Below, piece by piece: positions 1,695-20,348 of a stretch of DNA of 53,267 nucleotides. The notes below the pieces were generated by a model. The model did not search any database, had not been told where the DNA came from, and worked only from the letters and a program-made list of their open reading frames with translations. The stretch covers positions 1 to 53,267 of the forward strand of contig CAZUJW010000007.1 in NCBI GenBank assembly GCA_964620655.1, written 5' to 3'. A program made the translations under genes and the position numbers. Every line of letters begins with the position of its first letter. Positions within the stretch are counted from its first letter, which is position 1. Source of the stretch: an uncultured Christensenella sp. Lineage in GTDB: Bacteria; Bacillota; Clostridia; Christensenellales; DTU072.

Positions 1695-1742
1695 TTTTTA
1701 ATACAATCAAATTTATTTAGTAGTAATAAGGAGAAACAGTTT

Positions 1743-3443
1743 ATGCCGACGTTGGAATGGATAGGAAAGGAAAAAGTAATCAATCATCATCAGGACGTGC
1801 CTTTCCGTCTGTTGGATAAAAAATATACGTACAATGCGGAAAACTCCGAAAATATGATTATTCATGGGGACAATCTGCTTGCGCTTAAATCCCTTCTTCC
1901 CGAATACGAAGGGAGGGTTGATTGCATTTACATAGATCCGCCGTATAATACAGGGAAAAAGGAAGGACAATGGGTCTATAGCGACAATGTGAATGACCCA
2001 AGAATTAAAAAATGGATCGGCGAAGTGGTTGGCACAGAAGGCGAAGATTTATCAAGACACGATAAGTGGCTCTGTATGATGTATCCTAGATTAAAACTTT
2101 TACACAAATTGCTGTCTAACAAAGGTGTTATTTTTATTAGTATTGATGACAATGAGTTAGCGAGCCTTAAACTGTGTTGCGATGAAATTTTCGGCTCTAG
2201 TAATTTCATAGGATATCTTTCCGTTGAAATAAACCCAAAAGAAAGAAAAAATTCGGATTATATATCTATTAGCAACGATTATTGTGTTATATACGCTAAA
2301 AATAAAAAAGATACATATTTCTTGGAGAATATTCCTAAGGATAAAAAAGATTTATCTGTTGATGAAAACGGAAATTTAGTTCATAACAGTGGCAAACGTG
2401 TACTAGTCGGTGAAAATTCATTTAATAATATAGTTCAAGATTTTAACTCTAAAAAGCATTATACTGTTTACTATAACGCTGAACAATGTGATATGATATT
2501 AAAAAAAGAAACATCGTTAAGCGAGATGGACGACAAGTTGATATCTAAAGGATATGTGAGATATTGTTCTTACTCCGCTGAAAACTTTGTAGAAAACACT
2601 TATACTGCTGAAAAAATAGTTGAACTGTTTGAAAATAAAGCTTTAGACTTTAAAAATGGGAAAATTTACGAAAAGAATTTTAGCAGTTCTATTAGAATAA
2701 AAAGCATTCTTTCAAATAGAAATTATCAAACTTACGATTCTAATGGAAATATTATAGATTATAAAATAGATGTAAAAACTACTTCGGCTGGACAAGAATT
2801 AAAAGACATTTTTGAAACAACGGCTACGATTTTCAATAATCCTAAAAATAAAGGGTTGATAGAAATTCTAATTTCTTTGATTGACAATAAAAACGCCTTG
2901 GTTTTAGACTCTTTTGGCGGCTCAGGGACAACCGCACATGCTGTTTTAGACTTAAACAAAAAAGGCGGCAATAGAAGATTCATTCTCGTGGAAATGATGG
3001 ACTATGCTGACACCGTTACTGCCGAGAGGGTGAAACGTGTAATTGACGGTTACGGTGAAGGAAATAAAGCGGTTGAAGGATTGGGCGGAGATTTTTCTTA
3101 TTACGAGTTAGGTATGCCCCTTTTCGACGAGGATAAAAATCTGAACGAGGACGTGCCGGAAAAAGAAATCCGCAAGTACGTTTACTATATGGAAACGAAA
3201 CAGCGGATAGAAGCGCATACGGACGACAACGAGTATTTTCTCGGCAAGCACAACGATACGGCGTATTACTTCTACTACGAAAAAGAAAGATTGACCACGT
3301 TAAACGCGGAATTTCTTGCTACCGTAAAGACAAAGGCGACAGGGTATCTGATTTACGCCGATGTGTGCGCGCTTGCAAAAGACATGCTGGACGAATACGG
3401 GATTACATTCAAAAAAATTCCGCGCGACATTAAAAAACTGTAA
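1743..3443 (+). CDS. mod: Type III restriction-modification DNA methyltransferase (Mod)
   Basis: GDNL..LK, IYIDPPYN catalytic motif, VLDSFGGSGTT SAM-binding motif; directly upstream of Res. Confidence 0.9.
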   Translation: MPTLEWIGKEKVINHHQDVPFRLLDKKYTYNAENSENMIIHGDNLLALKSLLPEYEGRVDCIYIDPPYNTGKKEGQWVYSDNVNDPRIKKWIGEVVGTEGEDLSRHDKWLCMMYPRLKLLHKLLSNKGVIFISIDDNELASLKLCCDEIFGSSNFIGYLSVEINPKERKNSDYISISNDYCVIYAKNKKDTYFLENIPKDKKDLSVDENGNLVHNSGKRVLVGENSFNNIVQDFNSKKHYTVYYNAEQCDMILKKETSLSEMDDKLISKGYVRYCSYSAENFVENTYTAEKIVELFENKALDFKNGKIYEKNFSSSIRIKSILSNRNYQTYDSNGNIIDYKIDVKTTSAGQELKDIFETTATIFNNPKNKGLIEILISLIDNKNALVLDSFGGSGTTAHAVLDLNKKGGNRRFILVEMMDYADTVTAERVKRVIDGYGEGNKAVEGLGGDFSYYELGMPLFDEDKNLNEDVPEKEIRKYVYYMETKQRIEAHTDDNEYFLGKHNDTAYYFYYEKERLTTLNAEFLATVKTKATGYLIYADVCALAKDMLDEYGITFKKIPRDIKKL

Positions 3444-3453
3444 GAGGTGGGAT

Positions 3454-6048
3454 ATGGAATTAAAGAATTTTCAGAAACGAGTGATAAACGACCTTAACAG
3501 ATATTGCGAACTCCTGAACGAAACGGACAGTGTTTCGGGCGCGTACAAAGCGTTCTGGGCGGAAAAGAACGTTACGGTAGGTTTCGGAGGTATGCCCTCT
3601 TACAACAATACGATTGAAAACACTCCGCACGTTTGTTTCAAGGTGCCGACGGGCGGCGGAAAAACCTTTCTGGCGTGCAACGCCTTAAAAACCATTTTCG
3701 GCAATTTGCCGAGCAAGAAGGCGCAACTCGTCGTGTGGCTTGTGCCGTCGGAGGCGATTCTGTCGCAGACGTTGAAAAATCTTTCCGATCCTATGCACGA
3801 TTACAGGCGGAAAATCGAAGCGGATTTTAACGGGCGCGTGCAGGTTTACAGCAAACAGCAGGTTTTGGACGGGCAACAATTCAATCCGACGACGGTGAAC
3901 GAACAACTCAGTATCGTCGTTATGAGTTTCGACAGTTTCCGCATAAAGAACAAGGAAGGTCGTAAGGTATATCAGGAAAACGGGAATTTACAGTCCTTTT
4001 CAAAGTTTATCCCCACGCCCGACACTCGTATAAAGGACGTGGACGACACCGCGCTTATTCAGGTATTCAATCAACTTTCGCCCGTAGTTATCGTGGACGA
4101 AAGCCACCATACCACCGGCGAACTCAGTATCGAGATGCTAAAAAATCTCAACCCGAGTTTTATTCTCGACCTTACGGCAACTCCAAGACAAAACAGCAAT
4201 ATTATTTCATACGTAGACGCGGCGCAACTCAAAGCCGAAAATATGGTAAAACTGCCCGTCATCGTGTATAATCGTCCTTCGCAGGAAGAAGTGATTGCCG
4301 ACGCACTGGATTTGAGAAATAAACTGGAAGAAACGGCACGCGCCGAAGCGAGCGGAAGATATATTCGTCCTATCGTGTTGTTTCAGGCGCAACCCAAACA
4401 AGCCGAAAATAAGGAAACGTTTGAAAAACTTAAAAAACGGCTTGTAGATAACGGTATTCCCGAAGAAGAAATCGCCATCAAAACGGCGGAAATAAACGAA
4501 CTGAAAAGCGTAGACTTACAATCGTCCGATTGCAAAATCAAGTACATAATTACTGTAAATGCGCTTAAAGAAGGTTGGGATTGTCCGTTTGCGTATATTC
4601 TCGCAACGCTTGCAAACAAGAAATCTACCGTTGACGTAGAACAGATTTTAGGGCGAGTTCTGCGGTTGCCATATACGCAACAGAATGACAGTAAGTTTTT
4701 GAATTTGTCTTACGTGCTTACCTGCTCCAACGACTTCCATATGACGATTACGAAAGTAATAAAGGGCTTGAACGACGCAGGTTTCAGCGAAAAAGAATAT
4801 CGTATTGCCGAAGAAAAACCGATTGTAACAACGCCGGTACCCGTTCAGGAAAAAGTAGATTTCGTCACGGAAGAAGAATTTTTGCAATTTGACGACGATG
4901 CGTTGAAAGAGATTATCGACCGCAGACAAAATGCGGACGAAACGAACGTAATCGACGCTATGCTCGAAAGCGCGGAGGCAAACAGCGACGCTTATGACAC
5001 CGCATTAAAACAAGCGGAAGCGGAACCCGTAGGCGATTTGCCGTTGGAGGTGAGAAGCAAAGTGAACACATATCCTATTTACGAGCAATTCAGGGAAGAA
5101 GCATTGTCGCTCGAAATCCCGCAGTTTTTTGTTAAAACACCGCCGAGCATTTTTACAATGCTCAATCCCGATGATAAATCTCTTTTGGCAAAAGAAGATT
5201 TGTCGGACGGTTTTATGCTCAAAGACAAGGATGCAACCATAGATTTCGGCTCGGCTTTGGAATCCGTCGTTGAGGTTGACGTTCAAAAGAACGAGCGTCC
5301 GAAATACAGACAACTATCCGAAACGGAAAGCGAATACTTCAAAGGAATGTTGAAGAATTTGCCGCCAGAAAGCCGTGTAAGAAACTGCAAATTGGCGATA
5401 AAAAGTATTCTGGAAAAGACGGACAGCGTTGCGGGAAGTGATTTAACGGCGTATATCAATCGTATCGTCGAAAATATGAACGGCGACGAACTTGTTGCTA
5501 TGGAAAATAATATTTACGGGTATGCGGCGAAAATCAAATCGAAGATTGAAACGCTGCTCCACGAATACCGCAGACAAAAATTCAATCACCTGCTTGAAAC
5601 GGGGCAGATAGAATGTCTGCCGTCGTTCAGATTAAAAAGAGAAATCAATCCGGGAACTCCGTTTGGACTTCTTTCAAAGTCGCTTTATACGTCGGAACAA
5701 GCGATTAATAATTTTGAACGCAAAGTTATCGAAAAAGTATCTGCACTGCCCAACTTCAGGTGGTGGCACAGAAATATGGACAGGCTTGAGTTTTTCATAA
5801 ACGGATTTTTGAACCACTATCCCGATTTTATCGTAATGACAAACAGCGGAAAAGTCGTTATGATAGAAACCAAAGGCGAACATCTTGTATCCAACGATGA
5901 TAGTCGCGCAAAAGCGGAACTCGGTAAAATCTGGCAGGCACAAGCAGGAGGACAGTATCGTTATTATATGGTTGGTGAATACGACGTCGCAAGCAATCCG
6001 AACGCTATATCCCTCGACGAATTATTAAAGATAATGAGCGAGTTGTAA
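3454..6048 (+). CDS. res: Type III restriction endonuclease / helicase subunit (Res)
   Basis: PTGGGKT Walker A, DESHH, LTATP, LKEGWD, QILGRVLR, C-terminal YPDF..IETKG nuclease motif. Start reassigned to ATG 3454 after the GAGGTGG RBS. Confidence 0.9.
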   Translation: MELKNFQKRVINDLNRYCELLNETDSVSGAYKAFWAEKNVTVGFGGMPSYNNTIENTPHVCFKVPTGGGKTFLACNALKTIFGNLPSKKAQLVVWLVPSEAILSQTLKNLSDPMHDYRRKIEADFNGRVQVYSKQQVLDGQQFNPTTVNEQLSIVVMSFDSFRIKNKEGRKVYQENGNLQSFSKFIPTPDTRIKDVDDTALIQVFNQLSPVVIVDESHHTTGELSIEMLKNLNPSFILDLTATPRQNSNIISYVDAAQLKAENMVKLPVIVYNRPSQEEVIADALDLRNKLEETARAEASGRYIRPIVLFQAQPKQAENKETFEKLKKRLVDNGIPEEEIAIKTAEINELKSVDLQSSDCKIKYIITVNALKEGWDCPFAYILATLANKKSTVDVEQILGRVLRLPYTQQNDSKFLNLSYVLTCSNDFHMTITKVIKGLNDAGFSEKEYRIAEEKPIVTTPVPVQEKVDFVTEEEFLQFDDDALKEIIDRRQNADETNVIDAMLESAEANSDAYDTALKQAEAEPVGDLPLEVRSKVNTYPIYEQFREEALSLEIPQFFVKTPPSIFTMLNPDDKSLLAKEDLSDGFMLKDKDATIDFGSALESVVEVDVQKNERPKYRQLSETESEYFKGMLKNLPPESRVRNCKLAIKSILEKTDSVAGSDLTAYINRIVENMNGDELVAMENNIYGYAAKIKSKIETLLHEYRRQKFNHLLETGQIECLPSFRLKREINPGTPFGLLSKSLYTSEQAINNFERKVIEKVSALPNFRWWHRNMDRLEFFINGFLNHYPDFIVMTNSGKVVMIETKGEHLVSNDDSRAKAELGKIWQAQAGGQYRYYMVGEYDVASNPNAISLDELLKIMSEL

Positions 6049-6136
6049 CTGAACAAAGATATTCTTGTTTAGTGTGGTGATCTTTATTGTTTTTTTCGGA
6101 ATAATATGATAAAATAAAATTAGGAGGCGTTCTATA

Positions 6137-7015
6137 ATGAATAACAATAATATTCTTAATAGATTTTTCTCCAGGTCAATCCTTAATGAGATTGTAGTGA
6201 ATGGACACAACACTTGCTATGGAGAAATAATAAAAAGGTATTCCATTGATAAAGACGAAACGAATCAAACTATAATTTCGTCAATCTATTCGGTTTTAGC
6301 ATCTTCTCATCGAAATGAGTATTTTTATAAAAATACACTTTTGAACAATTTGATCATTAAAAAGCATAAATTGTATACAACCAAAGTGCTGACAGAACTG
6401 CCTATTAACAAGTCTATTGCCGATTTTATCACACTTAATGGAAAAGCTGTGGTATACGAAATAAAAACAGAATTAGATAACTTGGATAGAATCGAAGCAC
6501 AAATTCGAGATTATTATAAGTGTTTTCCCTTTGTTTGTATTGTTACTTGTAAAACACATTTGCCCAAAGTTAAGGAATTGTTCGCTAACACTAATGTTGG
6601 CATATATTGGTTTACTAACAGAAATGCTATCAAGGTGGAGCAAGAACCCCAACTGGAAGATTCTTATTTGGAATATGGCGCATTGTTTAAATTGCTACGA
6701 AAATATGAATTTGAAACCATATTGAAGAAAAATTTCCATTCATTGCCAAAAGTATCGCAATTTGATTATTATGCTGAATGCTATAAGTGGTTTATCAAAA
6801 TTGATATTAACAGAGTATTAAAAGATATGCTAGATATTCTAAAGCAACGTTGTATAATACGCGTCGAACAGTTTAATCAAGTTCCATTAGAATTAAAAAT
6901 GTTGGTGTACCAATCTAATTATACTGATAAACAGTATTCTATGCTGGAAACGTTCTTAAATTCAAAATATATCGACGGAGGGCTTGAAAATGTATTTCCC
7001 GTATTTGAGGGGTAG
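6137..7015 (+). CDS. sce7726-family protein, PD-(D/E)xK nuclease-like
   Basis: RNEYFYKN..., EL..NKSIADF...VYEIKTELDNLDR..QI.DY: a D..EIK nuclease-type motif; first gene of a trio. Confidence 0.75.
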   Translation: MNNNNILNRFFSRSILNEIVVNGHNTCYGEIIKRYSIDKDETNQTIISSIYSVLASSHRNEYFYKNTLLNNLIIKKHKLYTTKVLTELPINKSIADFITLNGKAVVYEIKTELDNLDRIEAQIRDYYKCFPFVCIVTCKTHLPKVKELFANTNVGIYWFTNRNAIKVEQEPQLEDSYLEYGALFKLLRKYEFETILKKNFHSLPKVSQFDYYAECYKWFIKIDINRVLKDMLDILKQRCIIRVEQFNQVPLELKMLVYQSNYTDKQYSMLETFLNSKYIDGGLENVFPVFEG

Positions 7016-7913
7016 ACAATTTGAATTGCTTGCAATTCGAGAACTAATCGAACATAACTGTATATCGAATAATATTATACCAATAATAGAACCTGTTAGA
7101 GCTTCTTCTACTTTGTTAAAAACGATTATTCAATGCAAAGAAGCAAAGCAGCATATTGCTTTTATAATAAACCCACATGTCGGATCTTTTTCTAAAGAGT
7201 TTAGAGAATTTGAAAAAAGTAACGAACTTTTAACAGCTATTAAAGATTCAACTATAAAGGCTTGCGTTGTAGATCAATCCATTAACGATCAAGTCAATCG
7301 TCTAACAAAGACCTTTAATTCATCAATAGAGGACTCCTTGTTTGTTTTCGATAAAAAGGATTATATTGAATCATATTTATTGGCCATCAATAATAGCCAC
7401 GCTAAATTCAATCTTATTCCAGATGAAAGGGATTTTCGTAGAAGTATTCGAGATAACAGAGTATTATTAAGTGATGCTTTTGACTCAAAAGATCGTAATT
7501 CTGACTATTCTGATGCGCCAGAATTGTATTCACGAGATCAAATATATTACAAAGAAGATGGGTATATAGGATTTGCGGATTATTCGATAGTAGGAAATAG
7601 GTTTTCGGAAGCAGGTTTTGCTCCATATTGTTTAGTTATACATATTGTTTATTTTGATGAGAAAAATCAATTACTAATTAGACATTTTAAATCATCTTCA
7701 AATGAAGATGCAACCGACCCTGCCAACAAATTTAGAGAAGCCTTACAAAAGTTGCTTTTATGGAATGAGAAACAAAAATTAGATACATATGCGATGCGTC
7801 AATTTAAAAAGATGTATGAAGATGGGGCCTATCCAGGATTAGGGACAATTAAAAAGTTATCATTAATGCACCATATAGAATTGGTAAACAAATTTCTTAA
7901 TGAACCGCTATGA
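6990..7913 (+). CDS. sce7725-family protein (Beta-protein-like)
   Basis: MYFPYLRGRQFELLA.REL, PIIEPV, GFADYSIVG...GFAPY...IH, GLG.IKKLS..HH. Start ATG 6990 follows GGAGG and overlaps the previous gene. Confidence 0.75.
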   Translation: MYFPYLRGRQFELLAIRELIEHNCISNNIIPIIEPVRASSTLLKTIIQCKEAKQHIAFIINPHVGSFSKEFREFEKSNELLTAIKDSTIKACVVDQSINDQVNRLTKTFNSSIEDSLFVFDKKDYIESYLLAINNSHAKFNLIPDERDFRRSIRDNRVLLSDAFDSKDRNSDYSDAPELYSRDQIYYKEDGYIGFADYSIVGNRFSEAGFAPYCLVIHIVYFDEKNQLLIRHFKSSSNEDATDPANKFREALQKLLLWNEKQKLDTYAMRQFKKMYEDGAYPGLGTIKKLSLMHHIELVNKFLNEPL

Positions 7914-8998
7914 AAATATGTAAAAATTGTTTTGCCGATATCGAATTGAAGACCATCGTTTCAAGCCATAGACAAATAGGCGTATGTGATATATGTGGAC
8001 ATGAGGATTATATTTATGACACGACCTTGAATAGTGCATTGATTGATACCATTGACGATTTTATGAATATTTATTCAAAAGCCAATGATGATACTCCTCA
8101 AAAATATAGGATGAACTTAGAAAAGGAACTAATTTATAATTGGAATATCTTTTCGATAAGTTGTGCATACAAAGTAAAGAAGATAGTAGATAGTATATAT
8201 GCATTTTCTGAAGACACAAAAAAGAGATTTGACACTACATTGTTTGATGGAGATGTATATATTCCTTACTTTTTAAATAGTGATTATTTAGAACTGCACT
8301 CTATTATTAAAAATAAACAGTGGGACGAGTTTACATATAGTATAAAACACATAAACAGGTATCACTCAGATATTTTAAACAAAGAACAACTTGATTGTTT
8401 TCTTGATCCACTGGTTATCGATATAAATATTGGTACGCATTTTTATAGGTCGCGCATTTCAGACATCAAAGGGTTTTCTGCTTCTGAAATGGGAATGCCT
8501 CCAACCGAAAGAGCTAGGGCGGGAAGAATAGGAGCGGAAGGAATCCCCTGCTTTTATCTGGCAAACGATGTCGATACATCTATAAAAGAAGTTCGGGCGG
8601 GGGCTTTTGATTATATTACGGTTGCAAAATATAAAGTTAAAAACCCTATTAAGGTTGTTGATTTGAGATTATTAGATCATATTAGTCCTTTTTCAATATC
8701 GGATCCAGCAACCCTTGCGATTAATCGAGAAACGTTATTAAGAATTAAATCTGAAGTAGAAAAACCTGTGCGGCTCATAGAAAACAGTATTGAATATGTT
8801 CCAATTCAGTTTATTTGTGATTACATTAGAAGTAAAGGATATGACGGAATAATTTACAGTAGCACAATGAGTACTACAGGGTACAATCTATCAGCATTCT
8901 CTTCAGAGAATTTCAAATTTGTGAGCAAAGCAGTATATTACATTAAAGATATATCAGTGGTTTCGGAAAAAGCGACAAAACACACAAAAATCGAATAA
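7910..8998 (+). CDS. RES-domain protein with N-terminal Cys/zinc motif
   Basis: CKNC..CDIC N-terminus; FYRSR, GR.GAEGIPCFYLA, EVR, YDGIIYSS carry the R/E/S signature; ATGA overlap with sce7725. Confidence 0.85.
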   Translation: MKICKNCFADIELKTIVSSHRQIGVCDICGHEDYIYDTTLNSALIDTIDDFMNIYSKANDDTPQKYRMNLEKELIYNWNIFSISCAYKVKKIVDSIYAFSEDTKKRFDTTLFDGDVYIPYFLNSDYLELHSIIKNKQWDEFTYSIKHINRYHSDILNKEQLDCFLDPLVIDINIGTHFYRSRISDIKGFSASEMGMPPTERARAGRIGAEGIPCFYLANDVDTSIKEVRAGAFDYITVAKYKVKNPIKVVDLRLLDHISPFSISDPATLAINRETLLRIKSEVEKPVRLIENSIEYVPIQFICDYIRSKGYDGIIYSSTMSTTGYNLSAFSSENFKFVSKAVYYIKDISVVSEKATKHTKIE

Positions 8999-9546: not shown

Positions 9547-9795
9547 ATAACAGATCATGAGTTACAAACAAGTGTACCCGCCTTAGCAGGCAGAAAACGG
9601 AAAGCAAAAGCCCAAAAAAAAATTGGAAAACGAGTACTTTTTACAAGCAGGATAAGGTTTTTGCAATCTATTTCAAAAACGATACGCTGAACAAGTCGGA
9701 AACCGACTTTTCGGAAAGGGCAACATTTGCTCGTATCCACAAGAAGAAATCGCCCTACTCTTACTAAAAATATCGGCGGACTAACGAAAAAGCAC

Positions 9796-10285: not shown

Positions 10286-10483
10286 TTGAAGCGGATACAA
10301 GAAAACACCGTTGAGGTCAATCTGTCAACGGAACACAAAGAAAAAGGCAGATTAAATCTGCCGAAAGAAAGAATACAAACAAGCGCAAAAATTTTAGCCG
10401 ATATTTTACTCGATTATGCGAGAAACGGCGGTAATATGGACGATTTAACGCCCGAGAGCGTATTCGGCAGGAGGAAGCAATGA
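10286..10483 (+). CDS. Small hypothetical protein overlapping the recombinase start
   Basis: 65-aa ORF with TTG start and weak RBS; its stop overlaps the recombinase ATG. Confidence 0.4.
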   Translation: MKRIQENTVEVNLSTEHKEKGRLNLPKERIQTSAKILADILLDYARNGGNMDDLTPESVFGRRKQ

Positions 10484-12105
10484 AAAAACGAGTAGTGATA
10501 TATGCAAGATTCAGTTCGCACAGTCAGACGGAACAGTCTATCGAAGGACAACTTCGGGAATGCTACGAGTATGCAAAAAGACAAGACCTTCTCGTTGTAG
10601 CCGAATACATAGACCGTGCGCTCACGGGGACTACGGACAAACGACCGGAATTTTTAAGAATGATTGAGGACAGTAAGAAAAAGACTTTCGACTATGTTCT
10701 TGTTTACCAACTTGATCGCTTTGCCCGTAACCGTTACGACAGCGCGAATTACAAAGCAAAGTTAAAGAAAAACGGCGTACGTGTTCTATCTGCAAAGGAA
10801 AACATAACGGAAGACGCAAGCGGAATTTTAATCGAGGGCGTGCTGGAAAGTATGGCGGAATATTATTCCGCCGAACTTTCGCAAAAGGTAAAACGCGGAA
10901 TACGCGAAAGCTACGAAAAAGGTTACTTCATCGGCGGATACGGTTTATTTGGTTATGATATCGTAGATAAAAAATGGGTAATAAACTCTTTTGAAGCAGA
11001 TATTGTCAGAGATATTTTTACAAGATACAAAAATGGCGAAAAGGCGAAAGAAATTATTGCAAGGCTGATCGGACAAGGCATTAAGACGAAAGCCGGTTCG
11101 TCGTTCAATATGAACAGTCTTGCAAGGATAATCCGCAACGAAAAATACATCGGGAAAGTAACTTCGCACGACACGGTTTACACTAACGTCATACCGCCTA
11201 TCGTGGACGAAGAACTTTTTTATGAATGCAACGCCATTATGGACAAGCATAAACATAAACCGCGCGACAGCAAGAGCGAACAGCCATATATTTTAAGCGG
11301 AAAATTGTTTTGCGGATTTTGCGGTAGTCTGATGACCGCCGAAACGGGGACAAGCCATACAGGTAAACTTCATCACTATTACAAGTGTTTCGGAAGAAAA
11401 CGCAACAAACACAGTTGTAAAAAGGCAAATTACAGACAGCAAGACCTTGAAGATCTGGTATTCGGCACGACGGTTAAATACGTTCTGCAACCCGACGTAA
11501 TTCAAACCGTTGCCGAACAGGTCGTTTCAAAATTCAATTCGGAGATAACAAAGACCGCAACGCTTGAAAATCTCGAAAACGAGTTGAAAGCCAAAGAAAA
11601 AGCGATAAATGCACTGCTTGCCGCCATAGAACAAGGCATAGTGACTAAATCCACCAAAGAACGACTGATTTCTCTCGAAACGCAAAAAGAGGAATTAGAG
11701 AGCAAAATTTCTCTTGAAAAGGCTCGGCAGATAAAACCGCTCGAAGTGGACAGAGTAAAAGCGTTTTTAACCTATTTTGCCCGTAAAAAGTATGAAAACG
11801 GGCAAGAAAAAAACGAGTTTTTCAACTCGTTCATAAACCGTGTTATTTTGTATGACGACAAAATTTTAATCTTTTACAACACCGACGATAATCACCCGAC
11901 GGTAATTAAGAGGAAAGACACGGAAGAATTTATTTCGCACTTTAATGACATAGCGAGCAACTGCAAAACCGCAACAAACGACTGTCCGAACACAACGGGA
12001 AACAACAGCCCCATCGTACAAAAGGAAAACTCGCTTGAACCTCAATGGTTCAAACGAGTTTCACTTGGCGGAGCCGAAGGGATTCGAACCCTTGTGCCAA
12101 GTTAA
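10480..12105 (+). CDS. Large serine recombinase (integrase)
   Basis: YARFSS catalytic Ser, SIEGQ, LDRFARN, recombinase domain, LSGKLFCGFCG..YYKC zinc ribbon and coiled coil. The last ~13 codons are read from the tRNA antisense strand. Confidence 0.95.
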   Translation: MKKRVVIYARFSSHSQTEQSIEGQLRECYEYAKRQDLLVVAEYIDRALTGTTDKRPEFLRMIEDSKKKTFDYVLVYQLDRFARNRYDSANYKAKLKKNGVRVLSAKENITEDASGILIEGVLESMAEYYSAELSQKVKRGIRESYEKGYFIGGYGLFGYDIVDKKWVINSFEADIVRDIFTRYKNGEKAKEIIARLIGQGIKTKAGSSFNMNSLARIIRNEKYIGKVTSHDTVYTNVIPPIVDEELFYECNAIMDKHKHKPRDSKSEQPYILSGKLFCGFCGSLMTAETGTSHTGKLHHYYKCFGRKRNKHSCKKANYRQQDLEDLVFGTTVKYVLQPDVIQTVAEQVVSKFNSEITKTATLENLENELKAKEKAINALLAAIEQGIVTKSTKERLISLETQKEELESKISLEKARQIKPLEVDRVKAFLTYFARKKYENGQEKNEFFNSFINRVILYDDKILIFYNTDDNHPTVIKRKDTEEFISHFNDIASNCKTATNDCPNTTGNNSPIVQKENSLEPQWFKRVSLGGAEGIRTLVPS

Positions 12106-12156
12106 TGGCTAACGCATTTCGAGTGCGCCCCGTTATGACCACTTCGATACAGCTCC
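12066..12156 (-). tRNA. tRNA-Ser(CGA)
   Basis: Reverse complement GGAGCTG..GCGCA-CTCGAAA-TGCGT, long variable arm, AAGGG-TTCGAAT-CCCTT, CGGCTCC-GCCA. Confidence 0.97.
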
Positions 12157-12488
12157 ATGTGTTTGAGATTAAGTTGTTTTGTTGTTAGCCATTGCAAGCT
12201 AACGCATTCGCGGGCAATACCGACTTCAGTCGATAGAGGAACAAGGTAAGGAGTTCGCCCGCCAGATTGCTACGCAATTAGCGAGTTACTGCCCCGTTAT
12301 GACCACTTCGATACAGCTCCATGTGTTTGAGATTAAGTTGTTTTGTTGTTAGCCATTGCAAGCTAACGCATTCGCGGGCAATACCGACTTCAGTCGATAG
12401 AGGAACAAGGTAAGGAGTTCGCCCGCCAGATTGCTACGCAATTAGCGAGTTACTGCCCCGTTATGACCACTTCGATACAGCTCCATGT
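12127..12488 (-). repeat. Tandem 164-bp units containing the tRNA-Ser 5' half (2 full units plus a third 34-bp copy)
   Basis: A 34-bp block (tRNA nt 1-30 plus 4 upstream nt) occurs at 12127, 12291 and 12455; the two 130-bp spacers are identical by eye. Confidence 0.95.
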
Positions 12489-12531
12489 ATGTTGTTCGAT
12501 TTAATATATTGCAATCAAATCCACGCCGATA

Positions 12532-12560
12532 AGTATACTACACTTTTTATCTTTTTACAA
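12532..12560 (-). promoter_or_regulatory. sigmaA promoter driving the repeat units and tRNA-Ser
   Basis: Minus strand TTGTAA-17-TATACT. Confidence 0.7.
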
Positions 12561-12619: not shown

Positions 12620-13429
12620 ATGAAAAAATTTTTACAAACGGAGAATTTAATGAATTATCAAGCGGTATTTTGGGACTGGAACGGAACTCTTCTGGATGAC
12701 ACTCAGGCTAATATCGACGCGGTGAACGTTTCTTTGGCAAAAAGGAACTTGCCTTTTCTTACAAACGAGTTTCACGCCGAGCATTTTGCTTTCCCGATAC
12801 AGAACTATTACGAAGCGATAGGGTTCGATTTTACGAAAGAGTCGTACGCGGACTTAGCCGACGAATTCATAAACAACTATCTTGCGCAGGAGTACGGTTT
12901 GCGTAAAAACGCCAAAAAAACGCTGGAAAAACTTTTTCTCAATTCCGTAAAGCAATATATTCTCAGCGCGTGCGAGAAAAATATTCTGTTCGAAGCGTTG
13001 GACAAATACGGACTTAATTGTTTCTTTACCGATATTATCGCATTGGACAACGTACACGCGGTAAGCAAAATCGAAGCGGGCAAGGCGTATCTTGCCGAGC
13101 ATCGTCCCGACGGTAAAATTCTTATGGTGGGCGACACGCATCACGACATAGAAGTGGCGACCGCTCTCGGTATGGATTGCGTACTCGTCCGCAGCGGCAA
13201 CCTCTCCGAACGCAGGCTGCAAGAAACCGGCGTAAAAGTCGTCGACGATATTTACGACGTCGTCGATATAGTTTTGGGAACGAAAAAAGGCAAACGCACC
13301 GATTTTTTAACCCCCGAAAAAGCGGAAAGACGGTCGTTCAACCTTGAAGAAACCAACAGAAAATTTTCGGAAAAGTATCACGATTTTTACGACGACGTGA
13401 AAAACACGAATAAAACGGAAGATTGGTGA
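12620..13429 (+). CDS. HAD-family hydrolase (phosphoglycolate phosphatase-like)
   Basis: FWDWNGTLLDD motif I, ILSA motif II, MVGDTHHD motif IV. Confidence 0.9.
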   Translation: MKKFLQTENLMNYQAVFWDWNGTLLDDTQANIDAVNVSLAKRNLPFLTNEFHAEHFAFPIQNYYEAIGFDFTKESYADLADEFINNYLAQEYGLRKNAKKTLEKLFLNSVKQYILSACEKNILFEALDKYGLNCFFTDIIALDNVHAVSKIEAGKAYLAEHRPDGKILMVGDTHHDIEVATALGMDCVLVRSGNLSERRLQETGVKVVDDIYDVVDIVLGTKKGKRTDFLTPEKAERRSFNLEETNRKFSEKYHDFYDDVKNTNKTEDW

Positions 13430-14262: not shown

Positions 14263-14294
14263 TAAGTCTTGAAAACCACGGAAACGAGCTATTA

Positions 14295-14660
14295 AGAACC
14301 GTCGAAAACCGAAAACAACCACTCATCATCCTTGAATATTGCGAACGAACCGGCGGAACGTCTCCACATCATCCTGCCTTGCCGAAGATCCCCGGCGAAG
14401 CGAAATTAAAATGCGGCTTACGCTTATATGTTTCTGTACTCAGCATCACGACTAATGTATGATTAAGGCGGTACAGTTCCAAGCCCCCTTAATGAAACAC
14501 TTTACCGTATGATGTTCCTCCCGTTATCAAAGCTAAACAAAGTTACGCTTTCACGACGAACAAAGTACTTAAATAAACTCTAATAAAAAGTGCTTTATAA
14601 ATGGTTTAAGTTAATAATATAGTCCGGTTCGCTCGTTGAGCACGGTCGGTTTGCCGAGAA
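14295..14660. ncRNA. Candidate structured ncRNA (possibly 6S-like on the minus strand)
   Basis: GC-enriched intergenic region without a credible ORF, with nested complementary segments (CGTCG/CGACG, GGCGGAA/TTCCTCC, ACATCAT/ATGATGT, TGTTTC/GAAACA, CTGTAC/GTACAG). Confidence 0.35.
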
Positions 14661-14662
14661 CC

Positions 14663-15220
14663 CTATTCTTCTTGAAAAACATAGTAACTTATCAAGTTAA
14701 AAACTATCAGTTCCTTTTTATTCTCATCGATGTAAACGTAACTGCTAGTTTTATCCCACGGATCATCGTAAAAATTGTATTGCTTTATTCCGTCAACCGT
14801 TTTTTTGTAAAAAATCAAACCTTCCGTTTGCAGCGTTCCCGAACTAAACAATCCGGTATAAGGAGAAACATCCGCTCCTTCGTATTTATACGTTCCGTCA
14901 CCATAATCGTCAAACTCTATTAAAAAATAAGAACCGTTTCCGGCACCATCTCCTCTATATACGTATTTTTTTACATTTTTTGTTGCACCACTTCCGGTAG
15001 TAGTACACATAACTACAATTAACGGAATTATCAAAATTAAAACAAGTGTGCTAATCGTTATTATTAATCCTTTTTTCTTTTTACTTTCCGTTTCGTTGAC
15101 GTTCGATACTACCGTTTCTTTTGCTTCAGAGGTGTCAGTGTTATCCAGTGCGGTTCCACAATTTGCACAAAACTTATTTGCGTCTTCGTTCATAAATCCA
15201 CATTTCTTACAGCTTTTCAT
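14663..15220 (-). CDS. Zinc-ribbon domain membrane protein
   Basis: CKKCG..FCANCG zinc ribbon, one transmembrane helix, then an extracytoplasmic domain. Confidence 0.8.
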   Translation of the reverse strand: MKSCKKCGFMNEDANKFCANCGTALDNTDTSEAKETVVSNVNETESKKKKGLIITISTLVLILIIPLIVVMCTTTGSGATKNVKKYVYRGDGAGNGSYFLIEFDDYGDGTYKYEGADVSPYTGLFSSGTLQTEGLIFYKKTVDGIKQYNFYDDPWDKTSSYVYIDENKKELIVFNLISYYVFQEE

Positions 15221-15404
15221 AAAAATCTCCTTTTTATTTTACAATATCAAATCATCTGTCCGTTTTATGGGATAAATGGAAGGACTAAAGGCAAATGGTT
15301 TACAAAATTTTCAAATACCGTCTTGTTTTTTTCTATTATCACCTATACTGTAAAATATGGACTTGTTAACAACAAAATTTCGTCCGCATAATAAGGAGTA
15401 ACTA

Positions 15405-16220
15405 ATGATAGAAAAATTTTATACGCATGATTTTGATGAAGAATTTAAAAGTATAGAAATAGAGATGGATTCCGATAAAATCTATTTCTATAAAATACAC
15501 GAGGAATTAATGCCGTTTGTCGGGACGGATTATAAGAATTCGGACATAAAGGTTTTGTTTGTAGGAGAAAGTCATTACGTTGATAATAATTGGCACATGA
15601 ATGAGAAAAATTGGAGAAGTTATGATATAGGGAAATGGGTAAAACCCGATTGGCAAGAGATATTTAAACCTTTTAGTTATGACAAAGAAGGAAATCAATT
15701 AGAAACCAAAGATGAAAATTTTACGAGTTGGTTTAACACAAGAATGCATGCAAATAGAGTCGGAAATCCTACCGCTTCGGAAAAAGCTCTTAAAAATCTA
15801 ATAAAGAGACCTTTGGGGGTTTTAAATCAAACCTTTGGATTTACATTCGGAATAAAAAACATAGCATTTTTTAATTTCTTCCAATATCCAAGTCTCTGTA
15901 ACGGTCAAACCATCCGAAATTCTATCAACAATAAAACGTGGGAAGAATTATTTGCATTTTCATTAGAGCTCGTAGCACGTGCCGTGGAAATCATTAAACC
16001 TGATATTATTATTTTATTAAGCGCCGATCTTTATGACAAGAAAGATGCAATAAAAAGCAGAATATCAGAAATATCCGACCCAGGTGTGGCTATTTGCGCT
16101 ACTTATCATGCGGGAGATAATAGGGTTTGGTATCATAAATATAAAAAACTTAATGATAAAAAGCCCGGCGACTATTTAGCCGACGAACTACAAAAAGCCT
16201 TGCAAGGTTTAAAAAAATAA
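15405..16220 (+). CDS. Hypothetical protein, uracil-DNA-glycosylase-superfamily-like
   Basis: PFVG..Y..KVLFVGESHY, FFNFFQYP, IKPDIIILL, YH motifs; AAGGAG RBS. Confidence 0.6.
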   Translation: MIEKFYTHDFDEEFKSIEIEMDSDKIYFYKIHEELMPFVGTDYKNSDIKVLFVGESHYVDNNWHMNEKNWRSYDIGKWVKPDWQEIFKPFSYDKEGNQLETKDENFTSWFNTRMHANRVGNPTASEKALKNLIKRPLGVLNQTFGFTFGIKNIAFFNFFQYPSLCNGQTIRNSINNKTWEELFAFSLELVARAVEIIKPDIIILLSADLYDKKDAIKSRISEISDPGVAICATYHAGDNRVWYHKYKKLNDKKPGDYLADELQKALQGLKK

Positions 16221-16250
16221 AGTATAAATGAAACGTATTCCTTTGCTAAA

Positions 16251-16315
16251 GTGGAGAGGCAATCTGCTGGGTGGAGAGACAATCTGCTGTGTGTGGAGAG
16301 ACAATCTGCTGTGGA
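16251..16315. repeat. ~20-bp tandem repeat GTGGAGAG(A/G)CAATCTGCT x3
   Basis: Copies at 16251, 16271 and 16293, plus a partial GTGGA at 16311. Confidence 0.9.
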
Positions 16316-16406
16316 CATTCCATCCGATGAACGTTTTATGCTACAATATATGATAGCATAAAAATGGTGGATGGAATGCCACTATAAAAGGTTGATTGGA
16401 TGATAT

Positions 16407-17198
16407 ATGATAGCTGAAAATTATAGACAAAAAGCCGACGAACTCAATACTCAATGGAAACGAGAAAAAGATGAGGAGCCAATATATAAATCGAGTGAAA
16501 ACTCGCAAGCGAACAATTTCATTTTTGACGGAATAGCGAACCCGAACGAATGGTATAAACAAGATATCCGCCCTCTCTTTATCCTAAAAGAAGCTTATAA
16601 TAAATCTACAAGCGATGACGAATGGAATGAAATAGATTTTTTCTTATCAGATACTATCTCACTCCCGGGCAGACCAACAGGAGAAATTGCTTCAAAATAT
16701 AAAACGTGGCGTGTCTTATGCTGTTGGGCATCATATATTTTCAGTCAAAATTATGATACACAAATAACGTGGGAAAACGAACACCTCAGGAAAATCGCTC
16801 TTATAAATATAAAAAAATACGGAGGACAGAATCCGTCGAATGATAAAGATTTAGAAAATCATGCAAAAAAGCACGCAAACTTAATCGTAGACCAAATCAA
16901 ACTTATTAAACCTACGATTATTATATGTGGTTATACCGGTTGGCTAATGGATATCGTTTGGGAAAAGATATTCAAAGAGAAAGTACGCAAAAACAAAAAA
17001 AACGGTAGAGTATACGATATCGTCATCCCCGAACAAGAGGAAATACGGCTGATTGATTTTTGGCATCCTGCCTCGCCAAAATCTCACAGAGATGATTTTA
17101 TAGCCGATATCGATGCAGCAATGGGATGGTTACCTTCCCCTTATATGCACAGTAACGAAGAACCACGAAACGAGTGTGAACTCAACGAATGTAAATAA
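16407..17198 (+). CDS. Hypothetical protein, uracil-DNA-glycosylase-superfamily-like
   Basis: F.FDGI, PLFILKEAY, ALINIKK.GG, QIKLIKP.IIICG, FWHPA motifs. Confidence 0.6.
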   Translation: MIAENYRQKADELNTQWKREKDEEPIYKSSENSQANNFIFDGIANPNEWYKQDIRPLFILKEAYNKSTSDDEWNEIDFFLSDTISLPGRPTGEIASKYKTWRVLCCWASYIFSQNYDTQITWENEHLRKIALINIKKYGGQNPSNDKDLENHAKKHANLIVDQIKLIKPTIIICGYTGWLMDIVWEKIFKEKVRKNKKNGRVYDIVIPEQEEIRLIDFWHPASPKSHRDDFIADIDAAMGWLPSPYMHSNEEPRNECELNECK

Positions 17199-17321
17199 CA
17201 AAATAACAAAATAGAGCTTACTAATCCGAAACATAAAACATATCACTGTTTTATTGCGACTTTTTTGGTATAATAAATATGTTATTATTATAGTAATCTT
17301 AGTTGTTACGGCGGAGGTATA

Positions 17322-18305
17322 ATGGATACTTTTGAACCTAAAAAAGCGGCTTTAATTCGCATTTTACAGATTTTACAACAAAAAACAGATATAGATCATC
17401 CTTTAAAACATTGTGAAATCGTCAACATACTTGACAGAGAATACGGTTTAGCCGTAGAACGAAAAGCGATCGGTCGCAATATATCTTTACTGAACGAAGT
17501 CGGGTATGATATAGTAACCACAAAAAAAGGTTCTTATCTCGCCGAAAGGACTTTTGAAGATGCAGAACTACGACTTCTCATCGATAGTGTTTTTGCAGGA
17601 AAACACATTACCGAAAGTCATTCTCGCGACCTAATAAACAAAATATGCTCGCTGTCAAATAAATACTTTAAACCACGAGTAAAACACATCTGTCGAGTCG
17701 GCGACTGGGATAAAACAGAAAACGCCGATTTATTTTACAATATAGAAATAGTAGACGAAGCAATATCTGAAAGTAAACAGGTTTATTTCAGTTACAACAA
17801 GTACGGCCCGGATAAAAAATTGCGAGAGACATCCAAAGTGACAGCGTCACCATATCAAATGATACTTCACAATCAACGATATTACCTTATGGCTTATAAT
17901 GACTACTACAAGCAAATGAAATATTATCGGCTCGACAGAATTACGAATATCGTAATTACAGACCATGTTTTACGCTCTCTCCGTGAAATTAAAAGTTTTG
18001 AAAATGGTATAGATTATAAACGGTTTTCCGCACAAATGCCCTATATGTTCGACGATGAAATAAAATTTGTTACGTTTATTAGTGAGCCATGGGCAATAGA
18101 CCAAATTGTCGATTGGTTCGGGAAAGATATAGCCATTAACCCTCAGGACGAAAAATATTTGGTCAAAGTAAAAACGAGTTTGCGTGCCATGGAGTTTTGG
18201 GCAATGCAATATCTCAATGCCGTCGAAATACTTACGCCTATTTCCTTGCGCGATAAATTGCGAGAAAATCTGATTAACGGACTGGAAAAATACACACGGA
18301 ACTAA
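17322..18305 (+). CDS. WYL-domain transcriptional regulator (wHTH-WYL-WCX)
   Basis: N-terminal wHTH (ILQIL..ERKAIGRNISLL), SPYQM...RYYL, YRLDRI; GGAGG RBS. Confidence 0.92.
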   Translation: MDTFEPKKAALIRILQILQQKTDIDHPLKHCEIVNILDREYGLAVERKAIGRNISLLNEVGYDIVTTKKGSYLAERTFEDAELRLLIDSVFAGKHITESHSRDLINKICSLSNKYFKPRVKHICRVGDWDKTENADLFYNIEIVDEAISESKQVYFSYNKYGPDKKLRETSKVTASPYQMILHNQRYYLMAYNDYYKQMKYYRLDRITNIVITDHVLRSLREIKSFENGIDYKRFSAQMPYMFDDEIKFVTFISEPWAIDQIVDWFGKDIAINPQDEKYLVKVKTSLRAMEFWAMQYLNAVEILTPISLRDKLRENLINGLEKYTRN

Positions 18306-18322
18306 TCAAAAAACAACTACGG

Positions 18323-18955
18323 TTATTGGTTAAATTTATCTATAACGTATAAGTACTTATCCCAAAAATTCGCTTGAAAATAACCTATAGTATATACTTT
18401 CTTCGCAAACATACACGCAACGTTTTTCACTGTGTATATCGGTGCAGTTAAGACAATTTTTCCGTAAAGTACTTCTTCGTGTCTTTCTGTGACCCCTATG
18501 TCTTTACATAAATTGTGCAAGCTGTCTTTACCTACGTCTATACTATTATCGTCTCGAAGCTCTGCAAGAATGGTTTTTATCTTTTTGTGAGACGCATTAC
18601 CGATTTTTTCAAAGATTTCAAATACGAGTTTGTCTACATCATCTCTGAAAATTAGACGTTTAGGATCCTCTTTTTCATGTTTCAAGAACAGAAACATCGC
18701 AAATGTGTATTGCTTTTGCACAAAAAAACCTCTCGCCACATATTCGCTCAATTTCTCAAAATTCTCCGGCTTTATCGAACCGGACTGATACTCCGGAATA
18801 AACAGCGGAGACGAGTATCTCCCTTCTGAAAAGAGTTTCCAAGTTAATTTATCTTGGTAATTGTCGACGTAAATTCCAGTCTTAGCTTCGCAAAACCGAA
18901 TAAGTTCATTATAGTAATTAACTGTGTCATTAAAAATTATTTCGTCTTTATTCAC
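18323..18955 (-). CDS. Hypothetical protein
   Basis: 210-aa ORF with GGAG RBS, co-oriented with 18971-19819. Confidence 0.7.
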   Translation of the reverse strand: MNKDEIIFNDTVNYYNELIRFCEAKTGIYVDNYQDKLTWKLFSEGRYSSPLFIPEYQSGSIKPENFEKLSEYVARGFFVQKQYTFAMFLFLKHEKEDPKRLIFRDDVDKLVFEIFEKIGNASHKKIKTILAELRDDNSIDVGKDSLHNLCKDIGVTERHEEVLYGKIVLTAPIYTVKNVACMFAKKVYTIGYFQANFWDKYLYVIDKFNQ

Positions 18956-18970
18956 TTCTTTTTCTCCTTA

Positions 18971-19819
18971 TCAGCGTATTTCCTTATCGCATAACTTGCT
19001 TAGCAAACTTATTCGCTTATCTTCGAATATAAACACCTGTCTGCCTGTTTTTCGCATAGTCGTTATCATATCCCCAATTATTTGTTCAGATTTATTTCCG
19101 AGTTGATTTATGATAAACATCGGCGGACCTTCTGCCATCCCAAAATTATTCATGAGCATATCCGTCAGTTGATTCGCCGTAAGGAAATCAATAATTTCAA
19201 ATTGCTCTTCTTTATCCGGTGCCAATGCGTCTTCATCATATATCCCGAAAGTCATATCGCCCCACGGATCTTTGACAAATTCTACGCCGTAATTATCTAT
19301 TATGATCTTTGGCAGATCAATTGCGGAGTGTTTTACAATATTTTGCGTATTTTCGTCACCTATCGCCATCCAATAATCTAAAACTTCTTGCGTATAGTAC
19401 TTGTTCTTTGCTCCGCCGAAACAACTTACCATTCTATAACAACCGCAAAACAAATATTCTGGCAAAAAGAAAAACTTTTTCGTTTGATTGCTATTCACAG
19501 ATTCTCTTTTTTTCATATCGGTAAAGATTATTTCTTTTTTATTTTGTTCGTTAATACTATTTCCTTTATTCGGCTTTTCCCTTATAGATATACCATAAAT
19601 TTTATTCTCATGTTCGCACTCTAAATACAATTCCTCATTTGCATCAGGATTTATATCGTACGCTGTGATTATGGCAAGCCAGTCTTCACAATACAAACAA
19701 AATATATTTTTTATTGCATTAAAAAAACTTTCCATATATTTAGAGTCCAAAACAATTATTTTATCTTTTTTCTCAAATGTCAAATCAACGTTTTTTGTCC
19801 TAAAATTTTTGATATTCAT
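18971..19819 (-). CDS. Hypothetical protein, possibly a degenerate ABC/RecF-like ATPase
   Basis: GGAG RBS; IKNFR N-terminus and ..GRQVFIF C-terminus, but no intact Walker A motif. Confidence 0.65.
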   Translation of the reverse strand: MNIKNFRTKNVDLTFEKKDKIIVLDSKYMESFFNAIKNIFCLYCEDWLAIITAYDINPDANEELYLECEHENKIYGISIREKPNKGNSINEQNKKEIIFTDMKKRESVNSNQTKKFFFLPEYLFCGCYRMVSCFGGAKNKYYTQEVLDYWMAIGDENTQNIVKHSAIDLPKIIIDNYGVEFVKDPWGDMTFGIYDEDALAPDKEEQFEIIDFLTANQLTDMLMNNFGMAEGPPMFIINQLGNKSEQIIGDMITTMRKTGRQVFIFEDKRISLLSKLCDKEIR

Positions 19820-19912
19820 TTTCTCTCCTGTCCGTTTATTTTAATAATCGTTTTTAATTGTCCCGATTTTGGTACAAAATAAATGTTTTTATTATTATCA
19901 GGAGAACTGATT

Positions 19913-20293: not shown

Positions 20294-20312
20294 ACCTCTT
20301 AACAGCCCTTTT
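20277..20312. terminator. Bidirectional terminator
   Basis: GGGCTGTCAAGA / TCTTAACAGCCC stem between convergent genes. Confidence 0.6.
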
Positions 20313-20348
20313 GGGATATCCTTAAAATCTTATTTCAGATACCGAAAA

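Follow-up and report, generated by a model that had tools for sequence, protein, structure and literature searches.

Tandem tRNA-derived units in the leader of a Christensenella tRNA-Ser(CGA) transcript, probably a small family of structured elements

We analysed a stretch of 53,267 nucleotides (nt) from an uncultured Christensenella sp. (assembly GCA_964620655.1, contig CAZUJW010000007.1; hereafter the window), in which two identical 164-bp units, each opening with a copy of the 5′ part of a tRNA-Ser, lie between a promoter and the functional gene of a tRNA-Ser(CGA). We found homologues of this unit in other lineages of Clostridia, with helices that are kept through compensatory changes, and the units probably belong to a small family of structured elements, so far undescribed, that derive from tRNA-Ser(CGA) and lie in its leader. 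Judged from sequence comparison, the reading that we tentatively put first is that of a dispensable, structured, tRNA-derived leader RNA repeat, most likely an accessory mimic of tRNA-Ser.

Layout of the locus and anatomy of the unit

An earlier note on this DNA, drawn up from the letters alone, had described the array and placed the units in the leader of the tRNA precursor. Sequence inspection, Tandem Repeats Finder (TRF), ARAGORN and Rfam bear out its description and coordinates, and with the promoter upstream, the tRNA and terminator downstream and all of them on the minus strand, the placement stands as well (Table 1). TRF reported a period of 164 bp at 12127-12488, with 2.2 copies, 100% matches and no indels, the extra 0.2 copy being the first 30 nt of the real tRNA. 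No tRNA was called in the units by ARAGORN or Rfam, the sole call being the gene at 12066-12156. Both promoter hexamers and their spacing are kept in L001, L002, L006, L007, L010, L149, L151 and L157, in which the downstream sequence differs, and the first ~25-30 nt of the window leader share homology with the beginning of the 193-nt leader in L010 and L001 (by alignment to L001, and by eye for L010). A single promoter would transcribe the units together with the tRNA-Ser(CGA). The HAD-family protein encoded divergently to this predicted transcript has its homologues in uncultured Clostridia.

Read from the sequence, each unit consists, in order, of tRNA nt 1-30, an 82-nt insert, 12 further tRNA nt, a hairpin and an A-rich spacer. 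The insert (12290-12209 in unit 2) is exchanged for tRNA nt 31-38 (GCACTCGA, 12126-12119) and is followed by (G)AATGCGTTAGC, which equals tRNA positions 12118-12108. By our own estimate, the chance expectation of such an exact 11-12-nt tRNA block in a 134-nt spacer is about 0.003, and the block recurs in other genomes. The units have neither a T arm nor a 3′ acceptor strand and do not make up the complete cloverleaf of a functional tRNA gene. The hairpins that the earlier note had listed (ATTGC/GCAAT, GCGGGC/GCCCGC and CGAC/GTCG) are all found in the window unit, but CGAC/GTCG is specific to the window, being absent from the related strain L149, and is not a conserved element.

Table 1. Positions of the units, their parts and the adjoining features in the window
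Feature	Position	Strand	Basis or remark
Sigma-70-type promoter, TTGTAA-17 nt-TATACT, of the whole predicted unit-tRNA transcript	12532..12560	-	consensus scan
Leader before unit 1, 47 nt	12485..12531	-	sequence
Unit 1, 164 bp	12321..12484	-	TRF; covariance model R1, 153 bits; identical to unit 2 (sub-features at unit-2 coordinates + 164)
Unit 2, 164 bp	12157..12320	-	TRF; R1, 153 bits
Unit 2, block matching tRNA-Ser nt 1-30 exactly (5′ strand of the acceptor stem, D arm, two opening nt of the anticodon stem)	12291..12320	-	
Unit 2, lineage-conserved motif ACTCGCTAATTGCGTAGCAATCTGGCGGGCG, holding helix H1 and the H2 5′ strand	12256..12286	-	alignment A4
Unit 2, helix H1, ATTGC-GTA-GCAAT, 5 bp, GNA-type triloop	12266..12278	-	
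Unit 2, helix H2, TGGCGGGCG (12264-12256) / TTGCCCGCGA (12217-12208), closing a 38-39-nt non-conserved loop (12255-12217)	12208..12264	-	
Unit 2, second tRNA-derived block GAATGCGTTAGC (anticodon loop end, 3′ stem strand, variable-arm start; tRNA 12108-12118)	12198..12209	-	
Unit 2, helix H3, GTTAGC-TTGCAATG-GCTAAC, variable-arm-like hairpin	12185..12203	-	
Unit 2, A-rich spacer, 28 nt, up to the next tRNA 5′ end	12157..12184	-	
Functional tRNA-Ser(CGA)	12066..12156	-	ARAGORN; Rfam RF00005, 50.8 bits; 100% identity to the L006 tRNA
Intrinsic terminator hairpin closing the predicted transcript	12026..12062	-	part of the inserted recombinase island
Large serine recombinase (Resolvase, Recombinase, Zn_ribbon_recom)	10480..12105	+	Pfam; last 13 codons antisense to the tRNA
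HAD-family hydrolase gene	12650-13429		divergent to the predicted unit-tRNA transcript

Homologues, conserved helices and turnover of the units

Scanning species-representative genomes for tRNA nt 8-30 yielded at least 120 loci, and a BLAST search of the insert against these loci found, among the matches listed, only one (L112, from a Clostridia metagenome-assembled genome). At this locus a promoter precedes two units, 159 and 158 nt long and about 95% alike, and a tRNA-Ser(CGA). A further locus (L165) was reached through the DUF3784 protein that neighbours the L112 array, the neighbour proteins being 59% identical; it holds a promoter and at least two units up to the contig end, and its tRNA is not on the contig. 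On this evidence the unit family is present in at least three lineages.

The acceptor 5′ strand of the unit is that of the resident tRNA in the window (GGAGCTG) and in L112 (GGAGCGG), the L165 unit reading GGAGTGG, and the D arm is common to the units of all three lineages. The stretch identical to the tRNA is nt 1-30 in the window; in L112 it is about nt 1-13 and in L165 about nt 1-37 (the last inferred against a window-type tRNA), with no fixed crossover point apparent between lineages. The cross-lineage motif ACTCGC[A/T]AATT[G/A]CG-N-AG[C/T]AATCTGGCG[G/A][G/A]CG includes about 28 nt that are not of tRNA origin and are kept with 2-4 changes between lineages; it is followed by a region of 33-38 nt without similarity between them. 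The 3′ region then reads [T/C]G[C/T][C/T]CGC[G/T]AAT and GCGTT or TCGTT, followed by a hairpin and an A/T-rich tail. The block after AAT is GCGTTTG in L112 and TCGTTTG in L165; in L112 it runs on as GACGAG, exactly as in the variable arm of L112's own tRNA, and in both the window and L112 this second block leads into the variable-arm start of the resident tRNA. The two L112 units have a D-loop in common, distinct from that of the functional L112 tRNA, which suggests that they were duplicated as whole units.

Between lineages, identity in the 5′ part of the unit is 80-89%, against a mean of about 60% (maximum 68%) for shuffled sequences, and over the H2 3′ strand and H3 it is 67-72%, against 54% (maximum 64%). 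The H2 loop and the tail with its A-rich spacer are at the level of the shuffles, as are the leaders of L112 and L165, which are unalignable. A covariance model (R1) built from five distinct units scores these five at 150-161 bits and ordinary tRNA-Ser loci at 45 bits at most, and it found no further member in about 1 Mb of related loci.

Covariation in helices H1-H3 was counted on an alignment (A4) of five distinct sequences from three lineages. H1 (ATTGC-GNA-GCAAT, 5 pairs) is paired in 100% of the cells, all five sequences forming it around a GTA, GAA, GGTA or GCA loop, and one of its pairs is changed on both sides (ATTAC-GCA-GTAAT in L149). H2 (9 pairs, 95.6% of cells paired) has two double-sided changes, both from G-C to A-U, one in L112 and one, at another pair, in L165; a further pair occurs as G.U, A-U or G-C. 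H3 (8 pairs, 77.5% of cells paired) likewise has two double-sided changes, its hairpin being found in equal register in every lineage with differing sequence. Overall, 91% of the cells of 25 pairs are paired, and five pairs differ on each of their two sides. Covariation scores 0.208, compared with 0.109 +/- 0.029 for shuffles (0 of 500 reach 0.208) and at most 0.08 for slid partners. These five sequences thus show what is expected of a conserved structured RNA, namely homologues in separate lineages with compensatory changes. The earlier note had taken the insert to be structured, and this view is upheld by the three helices, which are kept, with structure-preserving covariation, in two other lineages and a sister strain.

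An acceptor-like pairing of the unit 5′ strand with the H2 3′ strand is present in the minimum-free-energy folds of the window, L149 and L165, but its register differs between lineages, and we therefore dropped it as a conserved element.

An exact look-up of the window HAD protein gave no record of a further assembly of the strain. Orthologous loci in relatives were retrieved via this protein, and the promoter is kept throughout all those compared. In the distant relatives L002-L006 it is followed directly by the tRNA, and in the intermediate L007 by a 95-nt leader and the tRNA. The remaining loci fall into four types, all of the window's own genus. Type A (L151-L156) has one older, diverged paralogue of the unit, U_a (about 205 nt), and then the tRNA; type B (L149, with L147, L148 and L150 partial) has U_a, one window-type unit and the tRNA, and is without the recombinase island of the window. 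In type C (L001, L010 and L157-L162) a 193-nt hybrid, the start of U_a fused to the last ~55 nt of the unit, precedes the tRNA, and type D is the window itself, with two units and almost no U_a. The copy-number variation envisaged in the earlier note is therefore real, strains of the genus having 0, 1 or 2 copies, and on account of this variation the unit is dispensable.

Types A and B differ by exactly one unit bounded by the 30-bp tRNA repeat, which is the presence/absence difference that recombination between such repeats would give. The nearest relative by the HAD gene, L151 (6% nucleotide divergence), has no unit in common with the window, and the unit array turns over faster than the flanking gene. 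Between the units of the window and L149 we counted 0/30 differences in the tRNA block and 21/134 (15.7%) in the rest, while 24 of 96 four-fold sites (25%) differ in the adjacent gene. These unit differences are concentrated in the H2 loop, with only 5/65 in unit positions 100-164, and the stems are altered only compatibly; within the genus, changes in H3 are confined to the hairpin loop.

The paralogue U_a (L149 779-981, L151 1427-1626, L144 1-174 (minus)) consists of a decayed tRNA 5′ part, an insert of its own and a block resembling tRNA 38-60. Its divergence between strains amounts to 10-13%, compared with 28% at four-fold sites, and its nested stems CU[C/U]GC...GCGAG and UGCC...GGC[G/A] stay paired through pairing-compatible changes.

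Interpretation of the units and competing explanations

We propose that the unit originated as a partial copy of the tRNA gene, from nt 1 to about 50, in which the anticodon-loop region would have been rebuilt into H1, H2 and a free loop, the variable-arm hairpin retained as H3, and the T arm and 3′ acceptor strand lost. Copies would be gained and lost by recombination between the flanking 30-bp tRNA repeats, and the tRNA-like ends of the unit would be kept like the resident tRNA, most simply by gene conversion. Because three helices and the ~28-nt motif survive amid randomised neighbouring sequence, the unit RNA is probably under selection. RNase P, cutting at the tRNA 5′ end, would free the unit RNA from the precursor, and the free 5′ acceptor strand, the D arm and the variable-arm-like hairpins could then bind a partner specific for tRNA-Ser. 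Candidate partners are seryl-tRNA synthetase (SerRS) and a nuclease or modifying enzyme directed at tRNAs; a further candidate is the 3′ strand of the tRNA itself, binding to which would tune maturation.

Of the two ideas put forward in the earlier note, that of decoy 5′ halves competing for the tRNA 3′ half is compatible, as far as the sequence goes, with the free 5′ acceptor strand and would fall inside the mimic reading. That the units form a new class of leader-encoded 'half-tRNA' decoys or competitors, with a lineage-specific loop besides their tRNA-like parts and acting as a regulatory or defence RNA, we consider unlikely. The targets of such decoys would be a tRNA-Ser-directed nuclease or nucleotidyltransferase toxin, SerRS, the tRNA 3′ strand or, at the DNA level, integrases attacking the tRNA. 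The L112 units may also work together with a conserved '3′-half-like' element downstream of the tRNA-Ser(CGA).

This downstream element, of ~150 nt, lies directly 3′ of the tRNA-Ser(CGA) on the minus strand in L004 (about 640-860), L006 (about 9550-9710) and L112 (about 840-1000). It reads GGGAUUCGAACGGG...CCCAGGCGUGAUAG... and its end duplicates the final 19-25 nt of the tRNA. Covariation is seen in its nested stems, one being GGGCGG/CCGCCC or GGGUACG/CGUACCC and the second GCGACAAU/AUUGUCGC or GCGACGGC/GCCGUCGC, and its 5′ GGGAUUCG can pair with the 3′ CGAAUCCC, the acceptor 3′ strand and CCA then being free. In L006, the sole such locus scanned, it has no Rfam match. The element could be a '3′-half' counterpart of the upstream units, or an att remnant.

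Several observations weigh against a mimic. The covariation statistics are weak because they come from only five distinct sequences in three lineages, and related sequences can beat shuffles without any structure. Minimum-free-energy folds favour an alternative extended hairpin around H1 (CUCGC.../...GCGRG) that excludes H2, and the folding z-scores are modest (-1.7 to -3.3). Furthermore, the conserved part is largely tRNA-derived, and gene conversion with the very conserved tRNA could hold it. The element is also rare, at 1 of 120 tRNA loci among the matches listed, and is lost in close relatives, for which reason any function must be accessory. Lastly, the locus is of a kind already known as a hot spot of recombination.

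The explanation that best withstands the data next to a mimic is a recombination scar or miniature integrative element, that is, an attL-type 5′ half with arm sequence, stacked by repeated integration, or a tiny element lacking an integrase and moved in trans, whose motif and inverted repeats would be recombinase sites under selection on the element and not on the host. Although we judge it improbable on balance, it is a serious rival, because tRNA-Ser(CGA) is a common target of elements whose recombination in its anticodon loop displaces the 5′ half. Among 130 loci with this tRNA gene, 17 carry the tRNA-Ser 5′ part two or three times, 180-355 bp apart, and each copy in these simple arrays includes the anticodon loop (…CTCGAAA) and gives way to unrelated sequence just after it. 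Tyrosine integrase genes lie 0.3-2 kb from lone 5′ halves in L046, L089, L018 and L023, and it is this proximity that points to displacement of the 5′ half and not of the usual 3′ half; the elements of L018 and L023 each contain a second, complete tRNA-Ser(CGA). A scar would also suit the L165 unit, in which identity to the standard tRNA extends to CUCG in the anticodon loop, as well as the rapid turnover of the locus between close strains, the frequent breaks of contigs inside tRNA-Ser(CGA) and the bounding of the unit presence/absence polymorphism by the 30-bp repeat.

Such lone halves occur in other loci as well. In many Clostridia 5′ parts broken after the anticodon loop recur upstream of the tRNA gene; we observed them in L013, L014, L016, L025, L035, L036, L055 and L067, and further in L070, L075, L076, L093, L095, L101, L113 and L115. 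In L009 (3350-3620, minus as shown) a different tRNA stands on the opposite strand at the corresponding position, with its 3′ end and flanks repeated, and a seryl-tRNA synthetase gene lies about 2 kb from that tRNA.

Several observations speak against a scar. No integrase island and no other gene separates the unit's tRNA fragment from the tRNA gene, there being only 134 bp with no conserved open reading frame, and the sole recombinase of the window acts at the CCA end. The insert is missing from all simple 5′-half arrays. Among 50,697 phage records its only match was one of 30 nt, to the tRNA block at the end of a contig; 72,556 plasmid records gave none, nor did viral contigs scanned with four insert-derived patterns. 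The second tRNA block tracks the resident tRNA, unlike what a simple attL scar would lead one to expect, and the lineage-dependent length of tRNA identity counts against one, as does the D-loop that both L112 units share and the functional tRNA lacks. In addition, H2, whose partners are 34-48 nt apart, covaries like base pairing and unlike recombinase half-sites.

The same searches bear on the other idea of the earlier note, a 164-bp element that integrates into the anticodon arm and, inserted as a circle, restores the tRNA 5′ end. The insert occurs in no other tRNA or site in about 1 Mb of related loci, in addition to its absence from the phage, plasmid and viral-contig collections, and the D-loop shared by the L112 units is predicted by tandem duplication and not by serial insertion; of the two ideas, this is the weaker one.

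An unannotated 'Bacteriophage sp.' contig from human faeces (L131, MT836054.1) ends at 13395-13424 exactly in tRNA-Ser nt 1-30 (29/30), and is probably a prophage contig broken at a tRNA-Ser attachment site.

Slightly less credible again is a neutral pseudo-tRNA tandem repeat, in which a decaying partial duplicate would be multiplied or deleted by slippage or unequal crossing-over at the 30-bp repeats and partly refreshed by gene conversion, its RNA being functionless. The two window copies are identical, which indicates a very recent duplication; copy number is 0, 1 or 2 within one genus, with a decayed or hybrid remnant in L010 and L001; most relatives are without units; and the 15.7% divergence of the unit is not far from the neutral 25%. 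What speaks against neutrality is that homologues are recognisable in lineages whose leader and spacer are randomised, that substitutions avoid the stems or compensate one another, and that the motif of non-tRNA origin is retained with so few changes.

An assembly artefact, with the tandem copy made by the assembler and one or no unit in the real genome, is very improbable: the copies are 100% identical, 164 bp is close to short-read length and the contigs of relatives often end here, but assemblers usually collapse exact tandem copies rather than create them, and the independent assemblies of L149, with one unit, and of L112 and L165, each with two slightly different units in a like architecture, indicate that arrays of one or two units are real.

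Other candidates were rejected. The earlier note had held the units to be neither a CRISPR array (clustered regularly interspaced short palindromic repeats) nor an ordinary tRNA duplication, and we agree; in place of short repeats of 24-48 bp set apart by unique spacers of similar size, the array repeats its full 164-bp period and contains no unique spacers. A dispersed miniature element, like a miniature inverted-repeat transposable element (MITE) or a repetitive extragenic palindromic (REP) sequence, was dismissed after nhmmer and the covariance model, run on the window and about 1 Mb of loci, placed the insert only upstream of tRNA-Ser(CGA). A small protein gene was also discarded, short open reading frames differing in strand, frame and sequence between the window with L149, L112 and L165. 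Searches of Rfam 15, with gathering or permissive thresholds, returned only RF00005, on the real tRNA, and nothing for the units at E <= 10 in the window or at E <= 1 in L149 and L165. The pattern 'tRNA 5′ part ... insert ... core' had 0 matches in species-representative genomes, and a metagenome scan for the unit 3′ part recovered L010 only.

Known systems and the neighbouring islands

tRNA genes are classic landing sites of mobile DNA, and partial copies adjoining them, which are already well known, are normally dismissed as scars. Williams, in 2002, reportedly sorted integrases into classes by their sublocation in tRNA genes. Islander-type tDNA islands leave displaced tRNA gene fragments at the ends of islands and prophages (PMC4383910). 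The window resembles these in having a partial tRNA copy beside an intact gene, at an integration hot spot and with breaks in the anticodon-arm region. The units differ in copying the 5′ part, whereas islands usually copy the 3′ part, in the short and gene-free distance between fragment and tRNA, and in their second tRNA block after the insert, conserved covarying helices and tandem arrangement. In tRNA-dependent lysogeny, integration splits the host tRNA without rebuilding it and the element supplies its own tRNA of the same type (PMC10865867). The arrangement in L018 and L023 at tRNA-Ser(CGA) is similar, but the window has no element between the 5′ halves and the tRNA, and its recombinase stands at the other end of the gene.

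Among RNAs, the 3′ external transcribed spacer of Escherichia coli leuZ is cut from a tRNA precursor and acts as a sponge for small RNAs. As with the units, a non-tRNA segment transcribed along with a tRNA could be set free by the enzymes of tRNA processing; unlike them, the spacer is short, not derived from a tRNA, unrepeated and located 3′ of the tRNA. Transfer-messenger RNA (tmRNA), the bacterial Y-RNA-like YrlA and T-box partners have tRNA-like domains within other RNAs and keep the acceptor/T-arm half. There, too, part of the tRNA fold is reused in a larger structured RNA, but the units keep the opposite half, with the 5′ acceptor strand, D arm and variable-arm-like hairpin, and ARAGORN and Rfam found no tmRNA, T-box or Y RNA in them. 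Group I introns occur in the anticodon loops of bacterial tRNAs and share with the units an extra structured sequence at this loop and a helix joining both flanks. The 82-nt insert, however, is far below ribozyme size and has no Rfam intron match, and splicing of the unit could not yield a tRNA because the unit lacks the 3′ third.

For a conserved, covarying, tandem unit of a tRNA 5′ part plus insert in a pre-tRNA leader we found no described family, the literature search returning integration-site papers only and Rfam 15 no match. If functional, such a tRNA-half mimic encoded in the pre-tRNA leader would give bacteria a novel means of tuning or protecting a minor tRNA that is heavily targeted by phages, islands and toxins. 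Even as a scar, the units would mark a hypervariable tRNA-Ser(CGA) locus, with tyrosine integrases at the anticodon loop and serine recombinases at the CCA end, and displacement of the 5′ half matters for island-finding software, which expects 3′ fragments.

The recombinase island at the CCA end was examined as a source of the units and rejected, as it joins the tRNA there and not upstream. This position follows from the recombinase C-terminus, which is antisense to the CCA end, and from the island-free relatives L010 and L149, which part from the window sequence immediately after CCA. The recombinase reading frame crosses the junction: it continues in antisense across the terminator and a further 40 nt of the tRNA (overlap 12026-12105), the terminator encoding on its other strand the conserved ...NSLEPQ.FKRVS of the protein. 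Homologues of 85-96% identity agree up to ...NSLEPQGFKRVSLGG and then differ, each going on with xxGIRT, the antisense translation of a tRNA T-loop. The window protein ends with ...NSLEPQWFKRVSLGG followed by AEGIRTLVPS and the stop, and its homologues diverge right after ...SLGG into tails that contain GIRT. A second, different recombinase at tRNA-Ser(CGA) in L157 ends in GACGGAEGIRTLVPS, and a viral-contig homologue ends in GACGGALVT. This comparison suggests that islands of this recombinase family insert at the CCA end of various tRNA genes, and for that reason the C-terminus would change with the target.

The recombinase open reading frames in this comparison include those of L157 (577-2139) and L132 (3001-4570) in addition to that of the window (10480-12105, plus strand). 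The cargo of the window island (681-8998) looks like defence-type genes and includes a RhuM-family protein, an N6/N4 DNA methylase, a ResIII/DEAD helicase (type III restriction-like) and a RES-domain protein. On the other side of the tRNA locus, about 6 kb (14284-20317) are absent from the closely related contig L001, which joins 14284 to 20317; this segment, which holds a WYL-domain protein (17322-18305) and several open reading frames without a Pfam match, appears to be a second insertion near the tRNA locus.

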